Source: Eledone cirrhosa (taxonomy: Eukaryota). From it: a stretch of 64,000 nt of DNA. Each line of letters starts with the position of its first letter. Position 1 is the stretch's first letter. The notes under the pieces were generated by a model, which searched no databases, had not been told where the DNA came from, and saw only the letters and a program-made list of their open reading frames with translations. The translations under genes and the position numbers were made by a program. Location of the stretch: the NCBI GenBank assembly GCA_964016885.1, contig OZ024761.1, positions 27,404,001 through 27,468,000 on the forward strand, in the 5' to 3' direction. Positions 19,756-25,768 of the stretch are shown here, piece after piece.

Positions 19756-22127
19756 AAGTTATATTTAAAATTGTTGGGTTACAACTAGTAAATATTTATA
19801 ACTGATATAAAAGCACTCGACAAATACTTGGAGTATATTTACAATATTAAATAAATGGAAAACTATATTTATAAAACCATATTTATTTCATTATATATAT
19901 TTCAGGGATATCATATTAACAATATGCTATGCCTTCCTCAGACAAAATACAATATAAACAGTTTTATAGATAAATAGATTTGACATACCGTAACAACATC
20001 GACTTGTATTTGAAAAGTTGAATTGGCAGTGAAAAGATTGTACACAGAGAGAAAGAAAGAGAGAAAAAAAGGAAAGAAAGACAGAAAACGAAGAAAAAGA
20101 AGAAAAAAGAAGAAATGCATGGAACAAAATAGAGAGATGGAAAGATAGATAAAGAGAAGAACTTCATGTAAAGAAACAGAGATATATATATATATATAGA
20201 GAGAGAGAGGAAATAGAGATAGATACATATATATAGAAAACTAGGTAGTGGGACGTCCGTTGAGTAAACGTATCAATGATACATTTATTTATTTATTTAT
20301 TTATTTAGCTCTAGTATTAATGTAAGGGAGATATATGTGGTTAGGATAGAAACCAGCTGTTATATAGAGAGAAAAATTAAAAATAACCAGACATAGGCGA
20401 GGCATAAAAACCCTATGTTTTAATGTAGAGGTATTAGTATGTATAAAATAAAAACCAGCCACTACATTGTAAATATCAGTATTCCTGAATGAGACATGTA
20501 TCCACAATGTGTGACAAGTAATGATCTTATGTTTAGTTTTTTTTAAAAATTCATATGTTTATGTGATAACTACAAACATCTATGTGAATTTACATGATCA
20601 ACTCTGCAAAGCCTAAGTTCACGGAAAACATTCTCATTGTGCTATAAAAATTTAAGTATACATATATGTGTATATATATACACACAGATATATATAGAGT
20701 CAATATTACTACTATTCCTGTCTTTACTCTACAAGATTAACTATCAAGCAGAAATAGAGAGCAGATTTCAATATACTAATAAAAACATAAAAATATATAT
20801 CAGAAACAAAACCAAAAAATAACAATAATAATAATAATAATAAGTAATAATAAAATAGAAAACTAAAAAATATTACGAAAGAATATTACATATTAAAAAT
20901 ATTACATATTAAAAATATTAAAATTAAAATATTAGAAAATACTACAATAATAAAAATAAACCACAAAGATCAACCCTTCAAAATTAATTGACAATATTGC
21001 CAAGTTCATTATAAGCATCAGAGTCGAAAAACAGATAAAGCCAAAAATTATTTATCAAATCGCATCTAGCAAAGATCATTTCAAAAAGTTTAGGATGCCC
21101 ATTTGGTCTACATGTGTTCTTATATTTAATATAGAAGTTTATCTAGTGTAACGTTTATTCGAAATATTTGGAGCATCAACTTTTAGGGTAGCTTAATTTT
21201 TCATGAAGAATGTTTAAATAAAAATAAAAATAAAAATAAAAAAGAATAAAAAGAAGAAATCAAAGATTTATCGGCTAGTTTCCCATATAATTATAAATCA
21301 AACTAAATATACTACATTTTAAATTTAAATTTATATTTAAACGTTGAGTTTAATCTATGTTTGCAGCAACTGAATAAATTTGTCCGTAGATTAAGGGAAT
21401 TTTTAGATTTTAGTATAAAGAATATCTCCTCTGCGCAGAGGTCACATGTCTCAGAGGATGAATTAAAAGGAATCCCTCTTGAGACTATATTCCAAGCCGT
21501 CGAATATCTAACGTTATCTAGCTTAAGTTGCCAGAGTACGCCTGATAGTGCCGTTGAAGATTTTTTGCTTGGATCTGTGAAAGAATTCTTGTGGTTATTA
21601 TAGCGAAGTTTAAATTCCGTCGATGTGGAACCGACGTAGTTAAAAGAATTAGAGTCAGTTTTAACATTACAATTGTATACTATATTTTTAACTAAGCAGT
21701 TGTTATTTAACGGACATTTAGATCTATCTCTACAGTTACATTTGTTAACTTGTATATTATTTATGCTATTATCACTAGGTTTTAAGTTCCTATTATTTAT
21801 TCTATTAATATTTTGTGCTAAATTTTTGGTGGATGAGTAGGTTAATTTTATTGTATGTCTATTGAAAATTGAGTGATACCTATGTGTTCTAGGGAAGCGA
21901 TTATCAAGAGCTTTAAAAACTGTTTATATTGTATTTCGTCCGAGGAAGGCACAGCACACTGTTAATATGACATCCCCGAAATACATATAACGAAACAAAC
22001 ATGGTTTTACAAATATAGCCTCCATCTACTTAATATTGCAAATACACTCCAAATACTTGTCGAGCGCCTCCATATCAGTTACAAACACCTACCAGCTGCA
22101 ACCCAACAACCTAAACACAACTTTCCA
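19752..22127 (-). mobile_element. 5'-truncated Penelope-like element (Naiad-like) with inverted 5' tail
   Basis: Minus-strand order: inverted tail (22127-21915), GIY-YIG ORF remnant, long 3' region, hammerhead motif (19884-19949, CTGAGGA...GAAA), tail, (TA)n. Confidence 0.85.
21312..21923 (-). pseudogene. PLE C-terminal linker + GIY-YIG endonuclease fragment (open, no start codon)
   Basis: Reverse complement of 23682-24293. Confidence 0.85.
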
Positions 22128-22229
22128 TATACATATATATATACACATATACACACATATGTATGTACGTGTATATATAATTATATGGTGTATTTACTGT
22201 GAACTGGATACACACAGCAATATGTACAC

Positions 22230-22264
<35 letters not shown>

Positions 22265-22282
22265 CACACATACATATATATA

Positions 22283-22487
22283 TAAGAAACTGTTCAAGAC
22301 CCCGACGGCAGAGCTCAAGCTGTCTCGACGGCCACCTCTGGACTCAGAGTCCAGAAATAGCCGTCGAAACAGCCCGAGCCCTGCCGCCGGGGTCAAATAT
22401 TTTCCTATTACCCACTCTACTACCCTAAGTATTGAGTACTCCGGTGCGTTATGGTCCACCTGGTTCCTTACCACACTTCCTTTGTTA
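22283..22487 (+). mobile_element. Short palindromic PLE-tail-like element, family P (T>C-altered copy)
   Basis: Homologous to 62083-62300, including the tail TATTACCCACTCTAC...GGTGCGTTATGGTCCACCTGG. Confidence 0.75.
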
Positions 22488-22991: not shown

Positions 22992-23198
22992 ATATAAGAA
23001 AATGAGGTTTTTTGACAAAAAAAAAGAAACAGATGTCCTACATGGATGAAAATATAAGGAAAAGAAATCGAAAATGCAACTGGTGTCTCTTTAAGAATAT
23101 TTATTTATTTCCTTTACCAGTTTCACAGTTTTTATGCTTTTCAAAAGTAGAATTGAGAAGGAGGGTCTGTGGTTTTTCTCGCATATATATATATATAT

Positions 23199-23392
23199 AT
23201 AGGAACGAGTAGGACCCCGACGGCCGAGCCCAAGCCGCCTCGACGGCTAATTCTGGTCCAGAACCAGCCGCCGAAACGGCCCGAGCCCAGCCGTCGGGTC
23301 CCACTCGCTCCTATTACCCACTCTACTACCCAAAGTATTGAGTACTTTGGTGCGTTATGGTCCACCTGGTTCCTTACCACATTTCCTTCGTT
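23199..23392 (+). mobile_element. Short palindromic PLE-tail-like element, family P (T>C-altered copy)
   Basis: Homologous to 62083-62300 and embedded in (TA)n. Confidence 0.8.
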
Positions 23393-23613
23393 ATATATAT
23401 ACACATATATATATATATATATACATATATATATACTCTTTTACCTGTTTCAGCCATCCGGCTGAGGCCATGCTGGGGCACCGCCCTTGACAATATATAT
23501 ATATATATATTGTTTTTCTCGTATTTATATATATGTACCCAGTCCACACTGTAAAGTGGCCGTGTAGGGTACATGGTAAAAAGCTCCCAGTCCACACTGT
23601 AAATGTGGTTGGT

Positions 23614-25761
23614 GTTATATGTATTTCGGGGATGTCATATTAACAGTGTGCTGTGCCTTCCTCGGACGAAATACAATATAAACAGTTTTTAAAGCTCTTG
23701 ATAATCGCTTCCCTAGAACACATAGGTATCACTCAATTTTCAATAGACATACAATAAAATTAACCTACTCATCCACCAAAAATTTAGCACAAAATATTAA
23801 TAGAATAAATAATAGGAACTTAAAACCTAGTGATAATAGCATAAATAATATACAAGTTAACAAATGTAACTGTAGAGATAGATCTAAATGTCCGTTAAAT
23901 AACAACTGCTTAGTTAAAAATATAGTATACAATTGTAATGTTAAAACTGACTCTAATTCTTTTAACTACGTCGGTTCCACATCGACGGAATTTAAACTTC
24001 GCTATAATAACCACAAGAATTCTTTCACAGATCCAAGCAAAAAATCTTCAACGGCACTATCAGGCGTACTCTGGCAACTTAAGCTAGATAACGTTAGATA
24101 TTCGACGGCTTGGAATATAGTCTCAAGAGGGATTCCTTTTAATTCATCCTCTGAGACATGTGACCTCTGCGCAGAGGAGATATTCTTTATACTAAAATCT
24201 AAAAATTCCCTTAATCTACGGACAAATTTATTCAGTTGCTGCAAACATAGATTAAACTCAACGTTTAAATATAAATTTAAATTTAAAATGTAGTATATTT
24301 AGTTTGATTTATAATTATATGGGAAACTAGCCGATAAATCTTTGATTTCTTCTTTTTATTCTTTTTTATTTTTATTTTTATTTTTATTTAAACATTCTTC
24401 ATGAAAAATTAAGCTACCCTAAAAGTTGATGCTCCAAATATTTCGAATAAACGTTACACTAGATAAACTTCTATATTAAATATAAGAACACATGTAGACC
24501 AAATGGGCATCCTAAACTTTTTGAAATGATCTTTGCTAGATGCGATTTGATAAATAATTTTTGGCTTTATCTGTTTTTCGACTCTGATGCTTATAATGAA
24601 CTTGGCAATATTGTCAATTAATTTTGAAGGGTTGATCTTTGTGGTTTATTTTTATTATTGTAGTATTTTCTAATATTTTAATTTTAATATTTTTAATATG
24701 TAATATTTTTAATATGTAATATTCTTTCGTAATATTTTTTAGTTTTCTATTTTATTATTACTTATTATTATTATTATTATTGTTATTTTTTGGTTTTGTT
24801 TCTGATATATATTTTTATGTTTTTATTAGTATATTGAAATCTGCTCTCTATTTCTGCTTGATAGTTAATCTTGTAGAGTAAAGACAGGAATAGTAGTAAT
24901 ATTGACTCTATATATATCTGTGTGTATATATATACACATATATGTATACTTAAATTTTTATAGCACAATGAGAATGTTTTCCGTGAACTTAGGGTTTGCA
25001 GAGTTGATCATGTAAATTCACATAGATGTTTGTAGTTATCACATAAACATATGAATTTTTAAAAAAAACTAAACATAAGATCATTACTTGTCACACATTG
25101 TGGATACATGTCTCATTCAGGAATACTGATATTTACAATGTAGTGGCTGGTTTTTATTTTATACATACTAATACCTCTACATTAAAACATAGGGTTTTTA
25201 TGCCTCGCCTATGTCTGGTTATTTTTAATTTTTCTCTCTATATAACAGCTGGTTTCTATCCTAACCACATATATCTCCCTTACATTAATACTAGAGCTAA
25301 ATAAATAAATAAATAAATAAATGTATCATTGATACGTTTACTCAACGGACGTCCCACTACCTAGTTTTCTATATATATGTATCTATCTCTATTTCCTCTC
25401 TCTCTCTATATATATATATATATATCTCTGTTTCTTTACATGAAGTTCTTCTCTTTATCTATCTTTCCATCTCTCTATTTTGTTCCATGCATTTCTTCTT
25501 TTTTCTTCTTTTTCTTCGTTTTCTGTCTTTCTTTCCTTTTTTTCTCTCTTTCTTTCTCTCTGTGTACAATCTTTTCACTGCCAATTCAACTTTTCAAATA
25601 CAAGTCGATGTTGTTACGGTATGTCAAATCTATTTATCTATAAAACTGTTTATATTGTATTTTGTCTGAGGAAGGCATAGCATATTGTTAATATGATATC
25701 CCTGAAATATATATAATGAAATAAATATGGTTTTATAAATATAGTTTTCCATTTATTTAAT

Positions 25762-25768
<7 letters not shown>
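23614..25768 (+). mobile_element. Inverted near-identical copy of the 19.84-21.99 kb PLE
   Basis: Reverse complement of about 19838-21991; mirrored ORF-track entries (e.g. 21361..21603+ and 24002..24244-); hammerhead motif at 25658-25723. Confidence 0.9.
23682..24293 (+). pseudogene. PLE linker + GIY-YIG endonuclease fragment (~203 codons), missed by the ORF track
   Basis: Manual translation: FKALDNRFPRTHRYHSIFNRHTIKLTYS...CNCRDRSKCPLNNNCLVKNIVYNC...NYVGSTSTEFKLRYNNHKNSF...STALSGVLWQLK...CDLCAEE...LNLR...CCKH; the CxCx5C linker is described for Naiad PLEs. Confidence 0.88.

Follow-up and report, generated by a model that had tools for sequence, protein, structure and literature searches.

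Penelope-like retroelements have been known to form head-to-head arms, to carry tails and to capture host sequence (PMC8557442, PMC3846280), and how they build their arms is an open question (PMC8557442, PMC11167929). In vitro work on the Poseidon element of the anole placed two start sites of the reverse transcriptase (RT) at the borders of the tail and found that both DNA strands were extended (PMC11167929). It has also been reported that lizard Penelope RNA was heavily edited and that the rate of RNA editing in octopus was very high (PMC5625713). Here we describe a Penelope-like element in a stretch of 64,000 nucleotides from Eledone cirrhosa (the window; G000:C22:27404001-27468000 in an assembly of 3.0 Gb). 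Judging from its sequence, positions 19751-25767 probably represented one composite insertion, in which the RT captured an RNA that had been edited by ADAR and both arms were made from that template; we assigned this reading a probability of about 0.62.

The insertion consisted of two inverted arms, both 5'-truncated copies of a young Penelope-like element with Hydra-type motifs, which were separated by a spacer (21992-23613). The arms and their ends were as follows, C21 being the contig of another chromosome.

19840-21991, minus strand: left arm by pairwise alignment, with the pseudo-long terminal repeat (pLTR), the 3' untranslated region (UTR), the endonuclease end of the open reading frame (ORF) and the first 76 bp of an edited segment.
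23614-25767, plus strand: right arm by pairwise alignment, which began in the edited segment and stopped at the end that lacks a tail in this family, with (TA)n beyond it.
19751-19839, minus strand: the tail of ~89 nt, on the outside of the left arm and adjoining (TA)n; unedited, with the haplotype of a sister family (family B).
23614-23617, plus strand: GTTA microhomology, present in a C21 repeat as well as in the edited pLTR; the G was an edited base.

The near-perfect inverted duplication claimed by the first-pass annotation was confirmed, as the aligned arms (2152 bp on the left and 2154 bp on the right) differed by one substitution and one 2-bp indel. The substitution was found where the annotation had placed it (20611/24994), and the left G was the derived base, with C in 36/36 family arms. 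In place of the several microsatellite length changes that had also been described, there was only a single 2-bp AT indel near 20182. Over 1383 masked columns the arms differed at two, one of which was a boundary base, and this distance was smaller than that between the window arms and other family copies (median 0.94%, minimum 0.29%). The merging of the right arm into the TA repeat was likewise seen, its outer end reading ATATTGTA and then (TA)n. We judged the event to be very young, in agreement with the earlier view, and the arms could plausibly provide a double-stranded RNA substrate of 2 kb.

The segment at the inner end of the left arm carried the main cluster of changes.

21916-22128, minus strand: inverted pLTR and tail with the haplotype of the element's own family (family A); 31 of 85 A replaced by G, this being the only type of substitution in 211 columns.

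These changes were scored against the majority base of the family arms in each column. Of 41 raw A>G differences, eight in the flanking (TA)n, one base at the alignment edge and one family allele were removed, which left 31. Sorted by the 5' neighbour, edits were present at 16/36 positions after T, 10/30 after A, 5/13 after C and 0/6 after G, and in two related copies the positions with a 5' G were also unchanged (0/8 in L105 and 0/8 in L118). It was likely that such clustered A-to-G changes were made by ADAR RNA editing, and genes for adenosine deaminases were present on three contigs of the assembly. A search for RNA samples carrying the sequence listed none. All nine edits within the duplicated overlap were present in both arms, and the edit at 21991 supplied the G of the GTTA microhomology. 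Thus, the right arm did start within the altered segment with the same changes as G on the plus strand, and the proposal that copying followed editing was upheld by the shared edits and by the use of an edited base at the junction. The unit's own 3' pLTR and tail were unedited (1/78 T>C, this base being a family-B allele). The haplotypes differed, so we rejected the idea that the edited segment arose when the 3' end of the unit folded back on itself. Among 793 candidates in the assembly, 40 of which were scored, there was no second high-identity copy of the edited segment.

Most of the spacer could be traced to host sequence on another chromosome, and it contained two further clusters.

22170-23617, minus strand: captured host segment, collinear with G000:C21:6230220-6231911.
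22298-22394, minus strand: hairpin repeat 1; 8/8 mismatched pairs were A.C on the plus strand (A>G on the minus strand).
23201-23312, minus strand: hairpin repeat 2; 12 of 25 T changed to C on the plus strand, relative to 24 other copies.

The spacer aligned in order with C21 across several unrelated repeats, and the repeat that was cut at 23617 in the window stayed whole in C21. Changes of the editing type clustered in the two hairpin repeats: all mismatched pairs of hairpin 2 were A.C (12/12), and the adjoining non-hairpin part showed 0/34 T>C against 12/25 within the hairpin (p=5e-6). Of 17 T>C differences from C21 within and beside hairpin 2, five were changes in C21 rather than edits. Searches of the assembly returned no donor closer than C21 and no other copy of the window-specific spacer junction. 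An empty-site haplotig was not found either, the right flank being a common repeat. Both hairpins belonged to a high-copy repeat (22298-22490 and 23201-23392; 4266 candidates) that opened with a near-perfect palindrome of ~100 bp and that, by its sequence, was likely to be a general editing substrate. Positions 22618-22940 were a piece of another young repeat, 96-98% identical to many loci, some of them inverted pairs.

Edited copies were also observed away from the window. Two search patterns with one forced change each gave 7 and 18 matches in the assembly. The seven comprised the window locus twice, one lightly changed copy (L099), one match (L100) that was the same as locus L118, and three ordinary variants; the edited antisense tail was found at the window locus only (1/2 matches). 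In the second set, three matches were ordinary and 15 were a short head-to-head hairpin of the present family's terminal repeat, which sat within the 3' UTR of elements of another, second family of Penelope-like type. Both arms of these hairpins were changed A>G on the sense strand of that family, and the unpaired tail was spared (0/31). In an alignment of 13 copies, 22/36 variable columns were A/G and four copies shared three extra G, although some of these columns may be G>A reversions. We leaned, if only narrowly, towards the view that RNA edited by ADAR, together with host flank, has become inherited DNA again and again in this genome through Penelope-like elements, over successive rounds, so that the edits serve as single-molecule barcodes showing one template for both arms and jumps of the RT onto antisense RNA.

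The second family was also of the Hydra type (L104-L112, L115, L116, L118-L121; for example G000:C1:147.537-147.541 Mb, C3:251.80 Mb and C13:18.74 Mb), with a hairpin of ~400 bp in the 3' UTR, both arms edited and extra edits nested in some copies. In L118 the hairpin was longer and the edits were in part different ones. L099 (G000:C4:375.07 Mb) was a short head-to-head pair with seven one-strand changes in its paired part, and was possibly an independent, lightly edited copy.

The edited segment was not the only sign of more than one template. The tail and the outer repeat of the window carried alleles of sister family B, while position 19937 and the body were of family A and closest to L066. 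A B-type extra A at 19862 was present in both arms. Accordingly, the left arm joined three or more templates; both joins recurred in the right arm, one of them recognized by a single marker. Family B had 604 tail matches in the assembly, of which 12 loci were examined (L153-L164); its terminal repeat and tail were common to family A and its body was only ~75% alike. Two of the tail differences of family B corresponded to an inversion of a 10-bp near-palindrome. The full B/A allele combination of the window was absent from 16 other matches to the junction pattern. We rejected the possibility that the tail variants were private changes, as they were alleles of family B. A B/A crossover at the cut site of a hammerhead ribozyme gained no general support, since the 16 other matches did not include such a class; position 19904 varied within family B, which left 19863-19936 as the crossover interval.

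Taken alone, the inverted duplication was ordinary for this element family. Head-to-head arms were present in 20/20 fetched family loci, 17 of which had been selected for a visible partner. In 19/20, one end had the ~89-nt tail and the other lay exactly where the right arm of the window stopped; in the twentieth the partner arm was cut short. The first 100 of 2852 terminal-repeat matches, taken without selection, formed 58 clusters (36 head-to-head, 21 single and 1 direct pair). In 18/19 scored pairs the distance between the arms of one locus was below the cross-locus median, and in the remaining pair it was equal. Moreover, the tail-less arm was the longer one in 9/19 loci, which excluded that one arm had been copied as DNA from the other and called for two starts on RNA templates. 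At L061, L069 and L071, extra element pieces of 70-215 bp lay between the arms, which suggested frequent template jumps. A second priming is known from L1 elements, where twin priming yields inversions; L1 inverts without duplicating its 3' end. The two RT start sites and the extension of both strands described for Poseidon matched the tailed and tail-less ends of the present family (PMC11167929).

The first-pass annotation had explained the right arm by a separate and local re-retrotransposition, that is, by later transcription of the left copy and its re-insertion 1.6 kb away in the opposite orientation. It was true that the right arm had a proper retrotransposition end and inherited edits. 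However, the start of the right arm coincided with the point at which the C21 sequence stopped (23617), and no C21 match resumed beyond the arm (right of 25768). Together with the pairing of a tailed and a tail-less end, the signature of a single event in 19/20 loci, this pointed to one insertion; the copy also lacked the RT. Since the head-to-head form was the family norm, the window duplication was not taken as a separate local re-insertion, and we regarded this explanation as distinctly improbable. The template switch proposed as its alternative was likely to have occurred, but within the retrotransposition event itself and not as a separate local one. A switch of template during DNA replication or repair after the insertion, which would have copied 19840-21991 in inverted orientation, seemed hardly any more probable. 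It would account for the near-identity of the arms and for the short microhomologies at both ends (GTTA and TA). On the other hand, the outer end lay at the tail-less end typical of the family, the inner end lay at the last captured base, and host repair offers no reason for both.

We therefore preferred a single composite insertion with an edited template. The family architecture, the edits, their sharing between the arms and the agreement of the spacer with C21 were observed, and to these we add the following inferred steps. The enzyme would cut a (TA)n target, and each of the two start sites of the element would serve to prime one DNA end, giving a tailed left and a tail-less right end. The left complementary DNA (cDNA) would run through unedited element RNA (the B tail, then the A body) to 21926 and jump there to an antisense RNA that was edited, helped by imperfect homology over ~10 nt. 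This RNA would contain the pLTR, the tail and a flank of ~1.5 kb that came from an allele similar to C21, with its inosines read as C. The cDNA would stop at 23617, and its GTTA end could pair with TAAC at 21988-21991, so that the inner right arm would be copied from the first product. Alternatively, two reverse transcriptases could read one mosaic RNA with the same outcome in sequence. For the window locus we slightly favored the fold-back, because the three-part mosaic was repeated exactly.

Several observations weighed against the composite insertion or parts of it. The obvious pairing partner of the edited pLTR, namely the 3' pLTR and tail, was itself unedited, and fold-back cannot be the only route in a family where the tail-less arm is often longer (the 9/19 loci above). 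In addition, T>C on the plus strand would result whichever RNA the left cDNA had copied, so the shared strand did not prove that repeat and flank belonged to a single RNA. In hairpin 2, the avoidance of a 5' G was weak (3/10 after G against 9/14 otherwise). This would favor a process other than ADAR, such as a burst of RT errors or DNA deamination. However, the changes were of one substitution type on one strand and in the spacer were confined to hairpins, and the second family was changed on its sense strand in both arms, with the T of its unpaired tail spared. We thus considered a non-ADAR origin scarcely credible.

The C21 copy was also an imperfect donor. As assembled, it had no element at the expected (TA)n, it differed by a 124-bp gap and by different inserts, and outside the hairpins 23/830 bases (2.8%) differed from the spacer. 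These differences indicated that the assembled C21 copy was not the direct template; the true donor would then be another C21 allele or a missing paralogue. The contrast between this 2.8% and the single-base difference of the arms was also in favor of an explanation in two generations. Here, the edits and the mosaic would have been fixed in a parent DNA copy outside the assembly, whose transcripts were later twin-primed, and the edits would mark a lineage rather than a molecule. Twin priming was required in the 9/19 family loci, and edited copies re-amplified in the second family. Nevertheless, neither the edited segment, among the candidates scored, nor the spacer junction specific to the window occurred again in the assembly, the edited pLTR was young since it had no ordinary substitution in 211 columns, and the 3' pLTR had no new edits. 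We considered a parent copy of this kind unlikely.

Near-perfect inverted arms could also arise as an artefact of the assembly or of fold-back chimeric reads. A 122-nt contig from a public sequencing run (X1; depth 12.8) was identical to 23591-23712 and so held the junction unchanged, which gave weak support against an artefact, as the contig had 27 letters on the short side of the junction (below a bar of 31 letters) and came from one study that may have used the assembly's own sample. Furthermore, the arms differed at one base and one indel, ended on a biological site and enclosed a loop of 1.6 kb, and head-to-head pairs occurred throughout the genome. Thus, an artefact appeared very improbable and the composite insertion remained our preferred reading.

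The identity of the element was examined by its coding and non-coding features.

21312-21926, minus strand: 5'-truncated end of the ORF, with a CxCx5C linker and a GIY-YIG-type endonuclease.
19892-19941, minus strand: predicted hammerhead-like core (CUGAGGA, stem II, GAAA, NUH) in the 3' pLTR.

Related copies extended from the endonuclease end into the RT. A relative with an element length of ~3.65 kb (L078) had a single ORF of 710 amino acids, with YRDD in the RT followed by a C-terminal GIY-YIG (IVY...YVG). In this protein DKT replaced DKG (KSDKTNN), and RWR occupied the place of the N-terminal RWK motif. The linker was CNCRDRSKC, in agreement with the CxCX5C pattern. The CCHH motif was absent, with one C between IVY and YVG, and CDLC (CxxC) and CKH (CxH) were located around E and N. 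Both ends of the window insertion, as well as those of relatives, lay in (TA)n targets. A Pfam search of the element protein gave 0 families; its neighbours in a protein atlas carried HTH_animal and GIY-YIG. Rfam gave no hammerhead match and only sub-threshold matches to microsatellites, and the predicted fold of the hammerhead-like region was not better than that of shuffles (z ~0). We called the family young on account of the 2852 exact matches to a 34-mer of its terminal repeat in the assembly.

By its motifs alone, the element was Hydra-like, and assignments to Naiad and Neptune were rejected because the motifs fit Hydra. It shared with the Hydra clade the RT followed by a C-terminal GIY-YIG, the DKT motif, the CxCx5C linker, the lack of CCHH, the CxxC and CxH around E/N, the (TA)n targets, and the inverted 5'-truncated copy with a tail at a single end (PMC8557442). 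In contrast, Hydra elements were generally shorter than 3 kb, which was a tendency and not a strict criterion, against ~3.6 kb here, and their tails were 30-40 nt long against ~89 nt (PMC8557442). The accessible text on that clade made no mention of edited copies, which were present in the window family (PMC8557442).

The rest of the window contained other repeats, and its microsatellite load resembled that of an octopus genome. A common short repeat flanked the insertion in inverted orientation (18910-19345 and 26598-27020, with a partial copy at 17000-17240), which we took as independent insertions. Two related ORF ends (14085-14609, plus strand, and 27187-27738, minus strand; no Pfam match for the one searched) presumably represented a restriction-like endonuclease of a non-LTR element. 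Three fragments showed a resemblance to known elements: 54633-55052 (plus strand) to the endonuclease region of another Penelope, 62403-62783 (minus strand) to a mariner transposase and 1577-2953 (minus strand) to ORF1 of a LINE.

The duplication itself was thus real, and the locus was unusual in carrying what was probably edited RNA and in allowing the formation of the arms to be tested. On the preferred reading, RNA editing would lead here by mutation to an inherited A>G change, and edited antisense RNA of the host would have been captured from another chromosome. Molecule-specific edits would provide a natural, genome-only test, in which edits are compared between arms across many insertions. 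The writing of RNA edits back into DNA is familiar from retroprocessing in plant mitochondria, where the edits are C-to-U and organellar. In the mostly open-access literature that was searched, we came across no account of genomic Penelope copies in which ADAR edits had become fixed, and the accessible text of a retrozyme preprint did not mention ADAR (10.64898/2026.07.22.740005).

Among known systems, Poseidon was similar in that both strands were cut and extended and the tail was the stretch between two start sites. It belonged to another clade and was studied in vitro, and the available part of that study did not show arm joining or whether the arms shared one RNA (PMC11167929). The avian retroviruses RAV-1 and ALV, cited in a review as A-to-G hypermutated, also pass ADAR-linked edits into DNA by reverse transcription; these were exogenous viruses, whereas the window held an endogenous retrotransposon in an assembled genome together with host flank (PMC8586724). 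Retrotransposons edited by APOBEC resembled the window in having clustered substitutions of one type fixed in genomic copies, but those were G>A changes made on cDNA and not A>G changes tied to RNA hairpins (PMC2873906). Penelope elements of Adineta vaga were comparable in the capture of host sequence, which was moved between pLTRs in trans, and their head-to-head repeats were explained by self-priming, for which an antisense template was considered possible (PMC3846280). The accessible account of that system contained no editing barcode, whereas in the window the captured RNA was antisense to the pLTR and its edits marked both the strand and the molecule (PMC3846280).

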